The notes beneath the pieces are model-generated. The model had not been told where the DNA came from, ran no database searches, and was given only the letters and a program-made list of their open reading frames with translations. A program made the position numbers and the translations under genes. Below, one piece after another: positions 28,905 to 53,423 of a stretch of 54,789 nt of DNA. Every line of letters begins with the position of its first letter. Position 1 is the stretch's first letter. The DNA is from Promethearchaeota archaeon (GTDB taxonomy: Archaea > Asgardarchaeota > Lokiarchaeia > Sigyniarchaeales > SOKP01), in contig JAEOSD010000001.1 in the NCBI GenBank assembly GCA_016840545.1, positions 1 to 54,789 on the forward strand, in the 5' to 3' direction.

Positions 28905-29432
28905 TCACCTATTTTCCATCTTTTCTAACGTCAATTCTGTAAGTACTTCAAATGTTTTATTGACATTTTGTCCGGTTTTATTTGAGATTTCTCCAAATCC
29001 AGAGAAATTATTTCTTTCAGATATTTGAATACCAAAATCTCTTGTTATGTTACGTTGAGTATTTAAATCTATTTTTGATCCAACAAGTACTATAGGAATT
29101 CCGCCAGCTTTTTGTCTAACTATACTTACCCACTCGGGTATATTGTCTAAAGTCGGAGGGCGAGTGATATCATAGAGAAGAAAAGCAGCATTTGCTCCTA
29201 AACAGTATGTGGGAAGTAAAAATCTAAATCTTTCCTCTCCACCGACATCCCATATCTGCAATTTAATTTTTTTTCCATGGAGTTCTATAGTTTTAACATG
29301 AAAATCAACTCCAATTGTTAATCGCTCTGAGGGGTTGAAAATATTATAACAATATCTTTTAGTAAAAGAAGTTTTCCCTACAGATGCGTCTCCCAATAAA
29401 AGAATTTTAAATGTATAATCATATGTTGGAAT
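28905..29432 (-). CDS. Rab-like small GTPase (Ras superfamily)
   Basis: G1 GDASVGKTS, switch I TIGVDF, G3 WDVGGEERF, G4 VGSKID, G5 EISNK. RabF-like motifs are present: IGVDF, KLQIWD, RFRFLL, LLYDIT. The ORF track starts at TTG 29396, but the in-frame upstream sequence encodes PTYDYTFKILL (beta-1). The start is proposed at ATT 29430-29432, which has AGGTG 7 nt upstream. Confidence 0.9.
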   Translation of the reverse strand: MPTYDYTFKILLLGDASVGKTSFTKRYCYNIFNPSERLTIGVDFHVKTIELHGKKIKLQIWDVGGEERFRFLLPTYCLGANAAFLLYDITRPPTLDNIPEWVSIVRQKAGGIPIVLVGSKIDLNTQRNITRDFGIQISERNNFSGFGEISNKTGQNVNKTFEVLTELTLEKMENR

Positions 29433-42279: not shown

Positions 42280-42894
42280 ATGAATCCTGCTGAGTTATAT
42301 AAGGAATACATGCAAAAAGTAGGGGATAGAAGTGAGTTATTTGAACTTCTGGGAAAAAATTTTGATATTGAAAGTGCCTTATATCCAGGGAGCTATATTG
42401 ACATTACACCCTCTTTTTTTTTTCACAAAACTGTGTACATCGATAATTTTAAGAAAACAGAGAAATTCTTTGCTCAACGCAATTTAATGAACCTAATACT
42501 TAGAGATAAAAAATATGATGGAGAACCGATCTTAAAGTTTTATTTCAGAGATTATACGAAAAATTTTGAAGAATTGGACAAAGATTTTGATTTGCTAATT
42601 TCTCTCTATGCTGGTTTTGTATCGAAATATTGTAAAAAATATTTAAAAAAAGAAGGGTTGTTGTTGGTCAACAATTCCCATGGTGATGCAAGTATGGCAG
42701 ATCTAGATAAAGAGTTCAGTTTATATGCGGTAATATATCGGTCTAATAGGAAATTATATCTTAGTCAGAAAAATTTAGAAAAATATTTTGTACCAAAGAA
42801 GGAAATGGAAATTAGTATAGAATATTTAGAAAAGAAGATGAAAGGTATTGGCTATAAGAAAACGGCCAGTTTCTATTTGTTTAAAAAGGTTTGA
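42280..42894 (+). CDS. hypothetical protein (possibly Rossmann/methyltransferase-like fold)
   Basis: 204-aa ORF. ALYPGSYIDITPS and DLLISLYAG weakly resemble motif I and post-I of class I SAM-dependent methyltransferases. No firm assignment is possible. Confidence 0.35.
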   Translation: MNPAELYKEYMQKVGDRSELFELLGKNFDIESALYPGSYIDITPSFFFHKTVYIDNFKKTEKFFAQRNLMNLILRDKKYDGEPILKFYFRDYTKNFEELDKDFDLLISLYAGFVSKYCKKYLKKEGLLLVNNSHGDASMADLDKEFSLYAVIYRSNRKLYLSQKNLEKYFVPKKEMEISIEYLEKKMKGIGYKKTASFYLFKKV

Positions 42895-42905
42895 TAATTT
42901 TATTG

Positions 42906-43667
42906 TTAAAATTTGCCATGTTTGCCCTTCCCTTGAGTGAAATCCCTACTCCCTTGAACAAACTCACCACTTTCTAATGTTTTTAGGCCGAATTCAAATT
43001 CTTTTTTCATTGCTTCTTTTAAATTCATACCAAATTGTTCATAAGTGGATAACCTATCATTTTGCATACAAATTTGGGGAAATGATGCAATCTTGCTAGC
43101 TAATTTTTCAGCTTCTTCTCTCGCAGTTCCATCTTTTACAAATCTATTTGCTAAACCCCAATCTAATGCTTCCTGAGCCGTTACTGGACGACCAGTTAAA
43201 ATCATATCTAAAGCTCGACTTAAACCAATTAATCTTGGGAGTCTTACCGTTCCTCCATCAATTAAAGGAACGCCAAATCTTCGACAAAAAACACCAAAAA
43301 TAGCACTTTCTTCGACCACCCGTAAATCGCACCATAAGGCAAGTTCCAGACCACCGGCAACGGCATAACCTGCTACAGCAGCAATTATGGGTTTAGAAAG
43401 CATCATCCTTGTGGGTCCCATTGGACCATCTCCCCCTTTTCTTATTCTATTGGGTCTTCCTTCAGTAATTGCTTTAAGGTTTGCGCCCGCACAAAAAACT
43501 CCATTTGCACCCCACAGAACAGCAATAAGCGCTTTATTATCTTGTTCGAATTTTCTAAATGCATTAGCAAGCTCTAATGCTGTAGGACCATCTACAGCAT
43601 TTTTCACATCAGGATTATTAATAATTATAGTGTAAACAGGATAATTAACTTCTATTTGTATTGGCAT
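42906..43667 (-). CDS. enoyl-CoA hydratase/isomerase (crotonase family)
   Basis: 253 aa with FCAGANL and GYAVAGGLELALWCD. It is visibly richer in G/C codons than its neighbours. Confidence 0.85.
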   Translation of the reverse strand: MPIQIEVNYPVYTIIINNPDVKNAVDGPTALELANAFRKFEQDNKALIAVLWGANGVFCAGANLKAITEGRPNRIRKGGDGPMGPTRMMLSKPIIAAVAGYAVAGGLELALWCDLRVVEESAIFGVFCRRFGVPLIDGGTVRLPRLIGLSRALDMILTGRPVTAQEALDWGLANRFVKDGTAREEAEKLASKIASFPQICMQNDRLSTYEQFGMNLKEAMKKEFEFGLKTLESGEFVQGSRDFTQGKGKHGKF

Positions 43668-43764: not shown

Positions 43765-44853
43765 TTATTTTTGGTTTGCTAAATATTCATTCATTTCAAC
43801 AAAACTACTTGTTCTTATTAAAGCTGCTTTGAGAAATTGGAATCCAATATCATATGTGGAACCATCTCCTCCAATATGAATGATCCAAGGTATTTCTCTA
43901 TCATATAAACCCTTTGCTTTCATTATTTTTTTGGCTGTAATTATTCCATCAGCGACAGTGGCACCTGATTCGAATAAATGATGAACCCAAGGCACATTCC
44001 AAGATGTCACATTGTCTTTTGAAGTTGAGACTTCAGAGCAACTTGTATTATTGATATAAATAATATTGTATCCCGAAACAGCTTGAGCTGCGGTGGCGAG
44101 TTGATTAAGGACCATACCTGCACCACAACCCGGGCAAAGTCCATGACCTGGCTGAAGATGTTTTTGAGGTTCTAGGCTTTTACGATTCACTCGATAGAAA
44201 TCTATTGGTTTTTCTGCCCCAAATTGTTCAATAAGCCCTTTAATTTTTTTATTCCTTTGTTCCGTTAAATAGATAATTTCATCAATTTCTTTTTCCATAA
44301 ACTTAGGTTTGAATAGATGTCTAAACCTTCCCATAGATTTCAAATATTCAATAAATTTTTCTTTATCAATATCCAATCCTCGATAATAGGTAAATATAGG
44401 AATACCATCCTCTACTCTTATGGTGTATAAAGGCCAATAACCACAGTCCGTAGCTAATTTTGATATTTCCAGAGCTGCTGAAGCTTCATGCCTCCAACCT
44501 CTCATACAATCTGAATATGCTTGAATAAAAGCAGAACCATTTGACTTTAAAGCATCTGCAACTTTTCCCATGAAATCTGCTGGATAAGCAGGATTAACTG
44601 TTGCTAGGAAAAGTTTTTTTGTTCCATAAAAAGCAAATGGAGTAACTAGATCTTGTTTCACTCCAATTTTTCCAGGTATTTTTTCTCCCGCAGGTCCAGT
44701 GGTGGTAGAAGCATATGGTGGAGTTCCTCCGCTTTCTTGAATTCCAGTGTTCATAAAAGCTTCATTATCATAATTGAAAAATAACACATTAGATTTTTCT
44801 TCTCTACTTAGTATATCTTCAAAATTAATCACGTTTCTTTCTGGTTTTGACAT
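43765..44853 (-). CDS. porB: 2-oxoacid:ferredoxin oxidoreductase beta (ThDP-binding) subunit, circularly permuted
   Basis: 362 aa. Motif order here:
- YDNEAFMNTGIQ (aa 28-39)
- SDCMRGW (114-120)
- GYWPL (138-142)
- GRFRHL (175-180)
- GHGLCPGCG (236-244)
- TSCSE (270-274)
- IGGDGSTYDIG (328-338), then stop.
The canonical order begins with CxxC...GDG. The start is 4 nt after the porA stop. Confidence 0.85.
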   Translation of the reverse strand: MSKPERNVINFEDILSREEKSNVLFFNYDNEAFMNTGIQESGGTPPYASTTTGPAGEKIPGKIGVKQDLVTPFAFYGTKKLFLATVNPAYPADFMGKVADALKSNGSAFIQAYSDCMRGWRHEASAALEISKLATDCGYWPLYTIRVEDGIPIFTYYRGLDIDKEKFIEYLKSMGRFRHLFKPKFMEKEIDEIIYLTEQRNKKIKGLIEQFGAEKPIDFYRVNRKSLEPQKHLQPGHGLCPGCGAGMVLNQLATAAQAVSGYNIIYINNTSCSEVSTSKDNVTSWNVPWVHHLFESGATVADGIITAKKIMKAKGLYDREIPWIIHIGGDGSTYDIGFQFLKAALIRTSSFVEMNEYLANQK

Positions 44854-44856
44854 CTC

Positions 44857-46083
44857 TTAATCCACTCCATAAATTTTTTGTTTAGTTTCTCTAACACCTA
44901 AATATTGATAAAGCTCTCCTTTCATATCTGTGACTGAAACAATTTTCTTTTTAGCAATATCAAATTCATCTCTAGTCACATCTCTTCCACCTAAACCCAC
45001 AATAAAACTTCTAAAAAGAGTTCCGAGAGGGTATAAAGCTGATGCAATAGACATTGAAAATGGTGGAAGCATAGCATTTAATGAATCTGACTTCTCTAGT
45101 ATGATCAATTTTTCAATATTATGCTCTTCAATAATTTTTCTTAACTCTTCGTAAGGAAATGGTCGATACGCCCGAACTTTAATAAGCCCAATATCTTTGT
45201 TTTTTGTCATCCAACTAATAATATTTCCACACATTGAACCCATTGTACAAAAGGCTATTTTTGAAGAATTATCTAGGTTATATGTTTCGATCAAGTTATA
45301 ATCTCTTCCTGTTTCCTTCCTAAATGTTTTAAAAACTTCCCTCATTTGACTTAAAACTGGTTTTTTAGCTTCATCTAAATTCTTTCTCCCTTCCATAAAA
45401 TAAGAAGGTGTAACGATTCCGCCCCATGTGCCTGGATTTGATGGATCAATTGTATCTCTTGGCTTTTTTGGAGTCATTTTTAAAACAGTTTCATCTGGAA
45501 TAAGAGTTAATTTTTGAACTGAATGTGAAATAATAAAACCATCATGGACGAACATCGTTGGGAATAAAGAATCTTCAGAAATCATCACTGAGAGAATTGC
45601 AGCATCATAAGTCTCTTGAACATTTTCAGATACGATACAATTCCATCCCATTTCTGAATTTGTTTCAGTAAACTCCCACGCATTCCAAATGCTTAAATTC
45701 GGGCTATTAAAGGCTCTTGCGCTAATCATCATAGTTAATGGCAAACGCCATCCTACTGCCATAGGTAATCCTTCAGTCATTAGTAAATATCCTTGACTCG
45801 CTGTTGCGGTAAATGATCTTGCACCTGCCGCACAAGAAGCCGTTGAAAAACTGATAGCAGCTAATTCAGATTCTACATTGACAAAAGCAGCCTTTAATCT
45901 TCCTTGGTGGACAACATCAGATAACCCCTCAACAGATTGAGTCTGTGGCGTTATAGGAAATGCACAAATTACATCAGGATCTGTCTGAGTTACCCCCCCT
46001 GCAACCGCATAATTTCCAATCATCGTAGTCGTTACTGGTTCTTTTATCTCTTTAAAAAATATTTTCATAGGTTCTATTGACAT
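44857..46083 (-). CDS. porA: 2-oxoacid:ferredoxin oxidoreductase alpha subunit
   Basis: 408 aa with AFPITPQT, FTATASQG and the C-terminal GLGGRDV. It is collinear with archaeal PorA/VorA. Confidence 0.9.
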   Translation of the reverse strand: MSIEPMKIFFKEIKEPVTTTMIGNYAVAGGVTQTDPDVICAFPITPQTQSVEGLSDVVHQGRLKAAFVNVESELAAISFSTASCAAGARSFTATASQGYLLMTEGLPMAVGWRLPLTMMISARAFNSPNLSIWNAWEFTETNSEMGWNCIVSENVQETYDAAILSVMISEDSLFPTMFVHDGFIISHSVQKLTLIPDETVLKMTPKKPRDTIDPSNPGTWGGIVTPSYFMEGRKNLDEAKKPVLSQMREVFKTFRKETGRDYNLIETYNLDNSSKIAFCTMGSMCGNIISWMTKNKDIGLIKVRAYRPFPYEELRKIIEEHNIEKLIILEKSDSLNAMLPPFSMSIASALYPLGTLFRSFIVGLGGRDVTRDEFDIAKKKIVSVTDMKGELYQYLGVRETKQKIYGVD

Positions 46084-46097
46084 TTTTTACTCCTCCT

Positions 46098-47084
46098 TTA
46101 ATTCTCTGGTGCGGCACATGATGCCGGACCTTGTTTTAATTTTTTACTAATAGCCTCTACTGGGCAAACTTCAAGACAATTCTGACAAGATTTACAATGA
46201 AATTGATCAATACCTTTCATATGCCAAAGTCCATCTTCTCCCTTCTCTCTAATAATAGCAAAATCAGGACAAATGTACCAACATTGGGCACAATCCGTAC
46301 ATTTTTCTTCATCCCAGATCATATCATATTCTCCCCAAGAACCAGTATTAACCAATCCACTTCCCATTTCTATAACATCTTCATCACAGTACCAAACTCC
46401 CGCTTTATCAACTTCCTTATATCCTGGCAATCCAGGGAATACTTGTTGCCAAGGCACTTTTGTATCAACGGTAAAATCGGGATCCTTACCAATATCATAA
46501 ACACATGTTTCTTCAATCGCTTGTTTTATGGCAGCAATATTTTTAGCAGCCACTTCTCCTTTAAAACGTCTCATTATAGCATCTCCTAAAGCTTCTATTG
46601 AAAATATAGGCATAACACGGATAATGCCACCTAAAATAATGGTATTGGTTATATTTCTACCCAACACATCTAAAGCTATTCTAGTTGCATCAATTGTACC
46701 AATATTAATATCTTTTCTACCAACAACATCTTGAATTTCTACTTGATTTAAAACTGTATTAACAATCAACCAACCTCCCTTGGCTAATCCGGCAGTTACA
46801 TCGATTTCTCCTAAAAGAGAAGGATCTAATACAGCTACAACATGAGGAGCATATACTTGTTCATTTGTTCTAACTAAATCGTCATTAGCACTCAGTCTTA
46901 CATAACTTTCCGTAGGTGAACCCATACGCTCAGCCCCAAACATAGGTTGACAAACACCATAGCCATAAAAGGCTTCTACACATAAATTTGAAGCTGTTAC
47001 TCCGCCTTGTCCACCTCTCGCATGAAATCGAAGATTTATAACATTCTCTTTTAAAACTTCTTTTAATTGTTCAGCAGTTAACAT
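46098..47084 (-). CDS. 2-oxoacid:ferredoxin oxidoreductase gamma subunit fused to delta (2x[4Fe-4S]) subunit
   Basis: 328 aa. The N-terminal FHARGGQGGVTA is the gamma signature. The C-terminal CTDCAQCWYICP and CKSCQNCLEVCP are the delta ferredoxin. Confidence 0.9.
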   Translation of the reverse strand: MLTAEQLKEVLKENVINLRFHARGGQGGVTASNLCVEAFYGYGVCQPMFGAERMGSPTESYVRLSANDDLVRTNEQVYAPHVVAVLDPSLLGEIDVTAGLAKGGWLIVNTVLNQVEIQDVVGRKDINIGTIDATRIALDVLGRNITNTIILGGIIRVMPIFSIEALGDAIMRRFKGEVAAKNIAAIKQAIEETCVYDIGKDPDFTVDTKVPWQQVFPGLPGYKEVDKAGVWYCDEDVIEMGSGLVNTGSWGEYDMIWDEEKCTDCAQCWYICPDFAIIREKGEDGLWHMKGIDQFHCKSCQNCLEVCPVEAISKKLKQGPASCAAPEN

Positions 47085-52129: not shown

Positions 52130-52780
52130 TTAATCTTTTTTTGGTTTAGGATACTTACGTAAGAATTTAATGAAAAATATTAACCCAACCACCACTATAA
52201 TTCCTCCAGGGACTCCAAATCCAATTATGCTATCTAATGGACTTCCTAGAATAGAATAAATAATATCCGATATGAAAAAGGTGAAACCCCCCATAAGAGC
52301 ATAAATATAAAGCCGATTAAAGTCCAAGAAGTAGGCAACAATTGTAAATGGAAAGGTATATGAAATCAAACCAATAAGCAAAGGAGTTAATGATCCTGCT
52401 AAAGCAAGAAATTCTAATAATCCAAAAAATGTTAGAATAAAGACAATACAACCAAATAAAACATTAATTAAGAGGAATATTTTTAATTTTTTTTGCCGAG
52501 CTTTTCTTTTTTGTCCGAATTTAACAGTTCCAATTCGAGGAAGAGTTATAAATTTCTTTCCCAGATAATATATTAAAAAGGTTATTGTGGTCCAGATAAT
52601 TGAAATTATCAATATGTACAATGGTTCCATTATATCAAAAATTATTCGAGTCCAACCCAAACCGAAACCAAGCAATAACATACCAATAAAAATATCCCAA
52701 AAACCATCTTCAAAAAAAGATCGATACACTTTTTTTTCTATTGATTTTAAGTCCAATACCTCTTTATCAATATCTACCAT
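52130..52780 (-). CDS. multi-pass membrane protein, paralogue B
   Basis: The start is placed at the internal ATG (MVDIDKEV...), which parallels the paralogue's N-terminus. There are about 6 TM helices. The C-terminus is FIKFLRKYPKPKKD. Confidence 0.55.
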   Translation of the reverse strand: MVDIDKEVLDLKSIEKKVYRSFFEDGFWDIFIGMLLLGFGLGWTRIIFDIMEPLYILIISIIWTTITFLIYYLGKKFITLPRIGTVKFGQKRKARQKKLKIFLLINVLFGCIVFILTFFGLLEFLALAGSLTPLLIGLISYTFPFTIVAYFLDFNRLYIYALMGGFTFFISDIIYSILGSPLDSIIGFGVPGGIIVVVGLIFFIKFLRKYPKPKKD

Positions 52781-53423
52781 TTGAAATATCCTCCTTTTTT
52801 GGTAATGGATACTTTTTAAGGAATCGAACAAAAATTATAATTCCCATAGAAAGAATTATAATTCCAATGATTCCAAACGAGAAAAGCCATTTAATTCTGT
52901 AATCTATTGACCGGTTTAATGTTTCATTAATGATAATACCCATCCAAACAAGTACTCCAATTGCATAACACCTTGGATATTTTAATAAATAAGCTATAAT
53001 CGTGAAAGGGGGTATGATAAAAACCAAGCCAATAATCAATATAAAAAGAATACCCTCTACTTTTACTCCAGATGTTATTCCAATGAAAGGCAAAAGAAAG
53101 ATTGTTAATGTGAATATAACTTGGATTAGTATAATAATAATTATTTTTTTTCCAGCAGATTTTAGTTTTGGTCCAGGTTTTACAAATCCCATTCTAGGTC
53201 TAATGACGTATATAGTAACGATAAATATTACTACAAAAACTACACACAAAAGAATTAGTGGCCATAAAAAATATCTATAAGGTTCAGGTAAAGCCTCACG
53301 AAAAATGGGACCAAATGCCATTCCTGTATAAATAAAACCGATTGACATGTCGAAAAGCCCATGTTGATGAGCAGTTTTTATAATCTTCTTTTGTATAGCT
53401 TCTAAATCAATATCTTCAACCAT
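52767..53423 (-). CDS. multi-pass membrane protein, paralogue A
   Basis: 218 aa. It begins MVEDIDLEAIQKKI and ends FVRFLKKYPLPKKED, with the same topology as paralogue B. It overlaps B by 14 nt. Confidence 0.55.
   Translation of the reverse strand: MVEDIDLEAIQKKIIKTAHQHGLFDMSIGFIYTGMAFGPIFREALPEPYRYFLWPLILLCVVFVVIFIVTIYVIRPRMGFVKPGPKLKSAGKKIIIIILIQVIFTLTIFLLPFIGITSGVKVEGILFILIIGLVFIIPPFTIIAYLLKYPRCYAIGVLVWMGIIINETLNRSIDYRIKWLFSFGIIGIIILSMGIIIFVRFLKKYPLPKKEDISNGRY

Follow-up and report, generated by a model that had tools for sequence, protein, structure and literature searches.

The window analyzed here is a stretch of 54,789 nucleotides (nt) of a metagenomic contig with a G+C content of 31% (JAEOSD010000001.1, positions 1 to 54,789), assigned to a Promethearchaeota archaeon of the Lokiarchaeia. 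It contains a compact cluster of three genes for a 2-oxoacid:ferredoxin oxidoreductase (OFOR), all on the minus strand and arranged in the order gamma-delta, alpha, beta. The beta subunit of OFOR enzymes comprises the thiamine diphosphate (ThDP)-binding PP domain and carries the proximal [4Fe-4S] cluster. The third gene, an open reading frame (ORF) of 362 amino acids (aa) plus stop with an ATG start (43765..44853, minus strand), encodes such a subunit with its two halves in exchanged order, and is the subject of this report. An earlier note on this DNA had placed the ORF at the correct coordinates and left its strand unstated.

The gamma-delta fusion (46098..47084, minus strand) combines Pfam POR with two 4Fe-4S ferredoxin (Fer4) motifs. 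The alpha subunit (44857..46083, minus strand) consists of POR_N and PFOR_II, and its gene ends 3 nt before the ATG of beta. As previously suggested, both are collinear with their families. An enoyl-CoA hydratase (crotonase) gene (42906..43667, minus strand) lies directly downstream of the beta gene.

Along the beta ORF, all of whose features lie on the minus strand, the first 17 residues (MSKPERNVINFEDILSR; 44803..44853) form a new N-terminal extension without a detectable counterpart in canonical PorB; a short strand and a helix are predicted here with high confidence by AlphaFold2. Residues 18-216 (44206..44802) are by homology the counterpart of the C-terminal ~60% of canonical PorB and contain, in this order, the NYDNE strand, NTGIQ, the fourth cluster cysteine C116, GYWPL, GRFRHL and the C-terminal helix. 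At 44737..44775 lies the second half of the ThDP-Mg motif, NYDNEAFMNTGIQ (aa 27-39), and at 44506..44508 the codon of Cys116, the fourth [4Fe-4S] ligand, which aligns with the cysteine of the PFOR motif 'ayatCi'. The old C-terminus and the old N-terminus are fused in aa 207-235 (LIEQFGAEKP followed by IDFYRVNRKSLEPQKHLQP; 44149..44235). Residues 236-352 (43798..44148) then correspond by homology to the N-terminal ~40% of canonical PorB, with GHGLCPGCG, the third cysteine, GGDG and the helix that follows it. This part includes Cys240-x-x-Cys243 (CPGC; 44125..44136), the first two [4Fe-4S] ligands, the codon of Cys272, the third ligand (44038..44040), and, near the C-terminus, G329-D330-G331 as the first half of the ThDP-Mg motif (43861..43869). 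The ORF closes with a tail of ten residues (aa 353-362, EMNEYLANQK) and the stop codon (43765..43797). Motifs were located at residues 22-39 (NVLFFNYDNEAFMNTGIQ), 114-120 (SDCMRGW), 138-142 (GYWPL), 175-180 (GRFRHL), 234-246 (QPGHGLCPGCGAG) and 268-274 (NNTSCSE), all as quoted earlier, and at 327-339 (IGGDGSTYDIGFQ), one residue before the quoted 328-340.

Swapped order of the two halves

To describe the order of the homologous segments, we compared the ORF with solved structures, curated families, a profile of canonical PorB and artificial tandem PorB sequences. In phmmer alignments with the beta chain of an archaeal pyruvate:ferredoxin oxidoreductase (PFOR; PDB 9bt4_C), query residues 229-347 matched chain residues 6-115, and query residues 22-194 matched 118-283. 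The beta chain of oxalate oxidoreductase (OOR; 5c4i_C) gave the same swapped pattern of two stretches. A hidden Markov model (HMM) of canonical PorB, built here from 32 canonical-order sequences, aligned through its positions 120-293 with aa 18-206 and through its positions 9-127 with aa 225-353. The homology to the PP domain is thereby complete (9bt4_C 6-115 plus 118-283; HMM positions 9-293).

The NCBIfam PorB model (NF008819) also matched in two swapped stretches, with 211 bits and thus under its cut-off of 405 bits, and the other NCBIfam beta models likewise scored under theirs. Pfam TPP_enzyme_C matched partially, with profile positions 70-150 only, at residues 18-111, so that the second half of the profile lies at the N-terminus of the protein. 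No full-length collinear match to a curated family was obtained at that family's cut-off.

When a canonical PorB was joined to itself (unit of 326 aa) and compared by blastp, the ORF aligned in one unbroken high-scoring segment pair (HSP) across the junction (query 18-352 to target 128-460, 38% identity, E = 1e-62). Each of the tandem targets P0125x2, P0132x2 and P0131x2 gave one HSP of 329-344 columns over the junction (E = 1e-59 to 1e-62). The gaps amount to 5 residues at the junction of old C- and N-terminus and 1 more residue just after it; in this alignment, the old termini are joined without an added linker.

The four independent comparisons agree, and on these alignments the ORF is a circular permutant of a PorB-type OFOR beta subunit, as the earlier note had claimed when it proposed profile match order and a self-concatenated PorB as checks. 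The break separates the helix after GDG (329-331) from the NYDNE strand (27-31) and therefore falls inside the GDG-x(24-27)-N ThDP signature, which is also where it had been placed.

The predicted fold was assessed as well. An AlphaFold2 model computed on the family alignment reached a predicted local distance difference test score (pLDDT) of 79 and a predicted template modeling score (pTM) of 0.84, with high confidence at the fused junction and at both termini. All 24 Foldseek matches in the PDB with E ≤ 0.001 were PFOR beta, OOR beta or PFOR domain VI. Their template modeling (TM) scores were only 0.35-0.5, because a sequential aligner fits one half only. The modeled fold is consistent with a PP domain.

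Proposed working of the permuted subunit

The chain runs from the NYDNE strand to the old C-terminus, continues through the old N-terminus and the CxxC...C ligands, and ends just past GDG and its helix. The GDG-x(24-27)-N ThDP motif has an established beta-alpha-beta architecture. Judged by this architecture, both ends of the new chain would sit in the loop that links the helix to the second strand, and the first strand of the protein (residues 23-27) would pack beside the last (323-328). Asp330 from the C-terminal part and Asn30 from the N-terminal part would both contribute to binding Mg-ThDP where beta meets the Pyr domain of the alpha subunit. Catalysis would proceed as in an ordinary OFOR, with CoA-dependent oxidative decarboxylation of a 2-oxoacid and electron transfer through three [4Fe-4S] clusters to ferredoxin. 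All three subunits scored best with archaeal pyruvate-type models, yet below every equivalog cut-off, and we therefore leave the substrate unassigned.

Origin of the permutation

Taking these comparisons together with the conservation described below, we estimate a probability of roughly 85% that the ORF is a genuine and functional, permuted ThDP/proximal-cluster beta subunit of a three-gene POR/VOR/OOR-class OFOR in Lokiarchaeia, which arose through a tandem duplication that predates the divergence of the lineages.

As far as the alignments tell, tandem duplication followed by trimming is the most likely origin. A canonical porB gene would have been duplicated in tandem, after which the 5' part of the first copy and the 3' part of the second would have been lost, all before the sampled Lokiarchaeia lineages diverged. 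We favor this route because a short canonical segment overlaps at both ends and no new linker separates the old termini. The tandem alignment spans 333 positions against a unit of 326 residues, and seven canonical residues (ERGHDFL; canonical 128-134, HMM positions 120-127) are matched at both ends, by EEKSNVL (18-24) and by IRTSSFV (346-352).

The footprint of duplication described in the earlier note is thus borne out, weakly, as an overlap of 7-8 residues at both ends. The further remnants that it had proposed found no statistical support: the resemblance of EDILSREEKS to the helix after GDG and of FVEMNEYLANQ to YDNEAYMNTG was no better than that of shuffled controls when these segments were taken alone (44 family members against the canonical PorB HMM, 30 shuffles as control). 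BLAST alignments ran through the C-terminal tail ('...SSFVEM---NEYLLN' against 'HDFLYVLYDNEAYMN') in a minority of orthologues, with a marginal gain in score. The tail EMNEYLANQK may descend, in degenerate form, from the YDNEAYMN strand, which is not statistically demonstrable.

The tail also differs between subgroups of the family. In a deeper subgroup, it reads ...QN(K/R)YC(K/S/T)D(N/T)Y(C/Y)(E/K), usually with two extra cysteines (P0092, P0094, P0095, P0097, P0099, P0104, P0105 and P0110 in alignment A1), and in the subgroup of the window ...EMNEYLxxQK.

Several points weigh against the reading of a functional permutant derived from a duplication. The duplicated remnant is short, with 7-8 residues. 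Isolated C-terminal tails (aa 348-362) and N-terminal heads (aa 1-17) gave no signal at the expected HMM positions. A tandem duplicate or a partly trimmed intermediate was not found among the matches, for which no dedicated search was made. Concerning function, the reunion of Asp330 and Asn30 around Mg-ThDP is drawn from homology and general knowledge of the motif, and AlphaFold2 confidence drops to low values, although nowhere else, in the loop NTGIQ...TTTGP (residues 32-73), which in canonical enzymes takes on order only as part of the complex.

The same order of segments could have been reached by gene fission at the loop between GDG and N, with the pieces re-fused in swapped order. The shortness of the remnant, which is not significant alone, leaves room for this route, and the region in question is an insertion site in canonical PorB, as exemplified by an intein between GDG and S in P0216. 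The overlap of canonical residues 128-134 at both termini is predicted by duplication and not by fission, and no naturally split beta genes were found among the candidates that start at the breakpoint. We thus consider fission improbable and prefer tandem duplication and trimming. The candidates for split genes turned out to be truncated ORFs or gene calls at an internal methionine (P0207, P0211, P0232, P0235 and P0252) or, for P0216, the C-terminal portion of a canonical PorB interrupted by an intein. A correction of the order at the RNA level, by analogy to permuted tRNAs, was also discarded: the ORF starts with an ATG and ends with a stop of its own, and there is neither a conserved methionine near residue 225 nor an in-frame stop near residue 210.

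P0216 (413 aa) is a canonical-order PorB relative with an apparent intein that contains a LAGLIDADG-type endonuclease at the GDG/S position of the ThDP motif, and its gene call begins within the intein. Intein, permutation break and the candidate introns described below suggest that insertions have repeatedly targeted porB genes around the ThDP motif.

Distribution, conservation and selection

Collinear relatives of the ORF form more than 100 protein clusters (defined at 90% identity) of 359-368 aa with 53-90% identity to the query in NCBI, JGI, ENA and Logan data. Species-representative genomes, assembled independently of each other, yielded 128 candidate stretches that code for a relative, and the permutation therefore recurs in related genomes, where the earlier note had suggested to look for it. 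Eighty of these stretches were kept for locus analyses. Nearly all of the 80 are labeled Promethearchaeota, Promethearchaeia or Lokiarchaeia, and they include the closed 3.3-Mb chromosome CP070831.1. The beta gene of the window is 97% identical to a gene in a Promethearchaeota metagenome-assembled genome (MAG). With a canonical PorB as query, the permuted pattern of two HSPs was found in 90 out of 90 sequences (the window and 89 loci), and canonical order in none.

Among 1.84 billion representative proteins, 1347 matches were obtained, of which 150 were listed. Within those listed, P0121 (labeled Helarchaeota), P0122 and five short fragments were collinear with the query, and the other 143 had canonical order. 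The closest canonical relatives among the matches listed have ~43% identity and are labeled Bathyarchaeia.

A few contigs that carry the permuted gene are labeled Hod-, Hermod-, Thor- or Odinarchaeota, with genes 77-90% identical to the window protein, and one (DATKTW010000155.1, locus L043), labeled as an actinobacterial MAG, was deposited as 'Candidatus Nanopelagicaceae bacterium' and carries a permuted gene at 84% identity. These off-lineage labels probably reflect mis-binning or inconsistent naming.

In an alignment of 44 family members, N27, Y28, D29, N30, E31, A32, N35, T36, G37 and Q39 are invariant, as are G329/D330/G331 and the cysteines C116, C240, C243 and C272. The four cysteines line up with the canonical cluster cysteines, and the cofactor ligands are kept in every member down to 53% identity. 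The retention of the four cysteines and of both halves of the ThDP motif, which had been noted for the single ORF, accordingly extends to the family.

The ratio of nonsynonymous to synonymous substitution rates (dN/dS) was 0.049 (Nei-Gojobori method, 83 orthologue pairs). Values for the parts created by the permutation were 0.12 for aa 1-21, 0.09 for the linker (aa 195-228) and 0.05 for aa 348-362. The new termini and the linker are under purifying selection. The alpha gene was found directly upstream of the beta gene in 71 of the 75 loci that had room for it. The low dN/dS and the conserved operon with alpha argue for a functional gene, as the earlier note had proposed.

It could still be asked whether the permuted gene is a decaying or non-catalytic paralogue, with a canonical porB elsewhere in the genome encoding the true beta subunit. 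Such a reading could draw on the second OFOR-type cluster that stands beside the permuted gene in L086 and L089 (orthologous loci are cited by L numbers) and on the few lineages in which beta is apart from alpha (L001, L087). It is opposed by the strong selection and the invariant cofactor ligands, by the position of the gene as third cistron right after alpha, and by the finding that interrupted copies regain the exact conserved motif when their candidate introns are removed (see below). Furthermore, no canonical beta gene was found in the operons or flanks of the permuted loci. There was no sign of decay, which we exclude, and a catalytically idle paralogue is very unlikely.

An error of assembly or gene calling, such as the collapse of a tandem repeat, a chimera or the calling of two adjacent ORFs as one, would be conceivable for a window that is a single metagenomic contig, but this explanation is negligible and assembly error is excluded as the cause of the swapped order, given the collinear proteins from four data sources, the candidate stretches from different assemblers with a closed chromosome among those kept, the lack of in-frame stops, and a linker that is conserved and under purifying selection.

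Candidate introns in orthologues

About one-tenth of the protein clusters are short, with 245-282 aa, because the gene is interrupted. Ten independent contigs carry inserts of 30-43 nt with stop codons or frameshifts, located at five sites (codons 34-46 and 113) and with up to two inserts per gene; the window copy has no inserts. Site A lies within the Asn35 codon of FMNTG (AA/T; L086 46-75 and L089 1844-1873), site B within NTG-I-Q (L004 5789-5818; L005 and L092 about 2233-2263) and site C after GIQ (L001/L002/L003 5710-5740). Site D follows ESGGT (L087 2843-2885; L090), and site E precedes SDCM (L001/L002/L003 5962-5991).

Every insert folds as a bulge-helix-bulge (BHB) motif of the hBHBh' form, with two bulges of 3 nt, a helix of 4 bp between them and flanking helices. 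The central helix has 3-4 of 4 pairs at all five sites and the inner helix 7-8 of 8 pairs at four of the five. The structural criteria are met by chance at 0.009 (0.9%) per random site. In crenarchaeal cbf5, cleavage falls between the second and third bulge nucleotides (PMC2738675). When this rule is applied to the inserts, the conserved reading frame is regained at five out of five sites, and removal at site C also restores the nearly invariant Glu40. At site B, two lineages preserve the hairpin with unrelated sequences. Asgard archaea were reported to have a broad-specificity (alpha-beta)2 splicing endonuclease (PMC5829648).

By their predicted folds and borders, the inserts are probably mRNA introns spliced by EndA; translational bypass or inactivation fit less well. 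In the alpha and gamma-delta genes of the interrupted loci, no inserts of this kind were seen. We found no literature report of BHB introns in protein-coding genes of Asgard archaea, in a search that left most subscription journals outside its scope. We consider it somewhat better than an even chance that the permuted beta is the catalytic ThDP subunit of a main POR-class enzyme of Lokiarchaeia and is split by EndA-type BHB introns in several lineages.

Two further interruptions were not counted as introns: L088 has frameshifts in alpha and beta, probably from an error-prone long-read assembly, and the interruption in L091 is a scaffold gap of Ns. A scan of the whole window for BHB introns that would merge ORFs gave many matches at ordinary gene boundaries; it was unspecific and yielded nothing convincing. 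One candidate from this unspecific scan, BHB-like and located at 52781-52838, would merge two window ORFs without Pfam match (52130-52831 and 52767-53423, both minus strand, 233 and 218 aa), which overlap by 65 nt.

Comparison with known systems

The canonical counterpart is PorB of the archaeal four-subunit PFOR, represented by chain C of 9bt4 from Methanosarcina acetivorans. Both halves of the permuted beta are homologous to it (67 and 100 bits, with ~33% identity in the structure match), and the two share the ThDP residues, the four cluster cysteines, GYWPL, GRFxHL and the operon partners. Unlike PorB, the permuted beta has its halves swapped, with the break placed between GDG and N and the former termini joined; in addition, gamma and delta are fused in the window.

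The oxalate oxidoreductase of Moorella thermoacetica (5c4i/5exd/5exe) resembles the window in consisting of three polypeptides with a gamma-delta (domain III + V) fusion, which in OOR is the 'delta' subunit. Homology with its beta subunit extends over both halves (155 bits), and the difference lies in the canonical order of OOR beta. All window scores were far under the OOR equivalog cut-offs, and nothing suggests that the window enzyme uses oxalate. Domain VI of single-chain PFOR (1b0p, 6cin, 7plm) has the PP-domain fold and the cluster ligands in common with the permuted beta. The similarity is much weaker (~34 bits), with residues 19-144 aligned to PFOR 981-1100 including the fourth cysteine. 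Unlike the permuted beta, PFOR is one chain of 1,200 aa with domain VI in canonical order.

Natural circular permutants such as swaposins and some DNA methyltransferases are thought to have arisen by duplication and trimming. The beta ORF is like swaposin-type permutants in its continuous alignment to a tandem canonical relative and in the short segment present at both ends, and unlike them in having its new termini within a ThDP cofactor-binding signature motif.

The inserts in the orthologues are short, adopt the hBHBh' form and have their borders between the second and third bulge nucleotides, like the BHB intron of crenarchaeal cbf5 (PMC2738675), and they likewise occur in a lineage with the hetero-oligomeric type of EndA. 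Unlike the cbf5 intron, they interrupt a metabolic gene of Asgard archaea, at five sites across lineages with at most two per gene.

Neighboring genes and other observations

The crotonase gene is a neighbor in 22 of the 80 loci, a loose association with beta. Second OFOR-type gene sets follow the permuted beta in two loci. In L086 (1262-4060), separate gamma, delta and alpha genes are followed by NuoE/NuoF-like genes; this second alpha has 37% identity to the window alpha, and the set resembles NAD-linked clusters of the phenylglyoxylate-dehydrogenase type. In L089 (3073-3894), a gamma gene and a truncated ORF precede the contig end, and the beta gene of the second set falls outside the DNA covered.

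Some orthologous loci contain a partial second copy of the last 33-51 beta codons, 0.7-2 kb downstream of the gene (L001/L002/L003 7505-7621, L038 2082-2231, L019 6123-6275 and L022 6150-6248). In L001-L003 and L038, the copy lies just past a 204-aa ORF without Pfam match. The window has the homologue of this ORF (42280-42894) and no partial beta copy. This arrangement looks like a cassette inserted in the 3' end of the beta gene, which duplicated or replaced the gene end.

Elsewhere, the window encodes a Ras/Roc-family small GTPase (28905-29396, minus strand; Pfam Ras, E = 2e-41) immediately upstream of a 320-aa ORF without Pfam match. Ras-type GTPases are eukaryote-like signature proteins typical of Asgard archaea.

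Annotation and significance

Every NCBI entry that we saw names the permuted protein 'hypothetical protein', and JGI names it 2-oxoacid:ferredoxin oxidoreductase beta. Annotation pipelines assign no family name because the PorB score of 211 bits stays under the 405-bit cut-off. No curated family model for the permuted beta was found, and literature searches, again with most subscription journals outside their scope, returned nothing relevant on a permuted ThDP, OFOR or Asgard protein. In line with the earlier note, whose author was not aware of a described case, the conserved natural permutation through an OFOR cofactor motif appears to be undescribed; the enzyme family itself is ordinary.

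The permuted beta indicates that the GDG-x24-27-N ThDP signature tolerates chain termini in its interior and has been kept in this form under strong selection over long evolutionary time. It thereby provides a natural experiment for the evolution and engineering of ThDP enzymes, and the permutation clearly unites a large Lokiarchaeial clade as a shared derived character. The OFOR may be scored as lacking its catalytic subunit when metabolism is reconstructed automatically for the nearest archaeal relatives of eukaryotes, because the permuted protein fails collinear models and is named 'hypothetical protein'.

The same family exposes candidate BHB-type mRNA introns in Asgard archaea, a lead whose interest may reach beyond that of the permutation. 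If the inserts are spliced in vivo, mRNAs of Asgard archaea would be processed by the tRNA-splicing endonuclease and ligase, at a density for which no precedent is reported among archaeal protein genes. The beta family could then serve as a ready test case for such processing.

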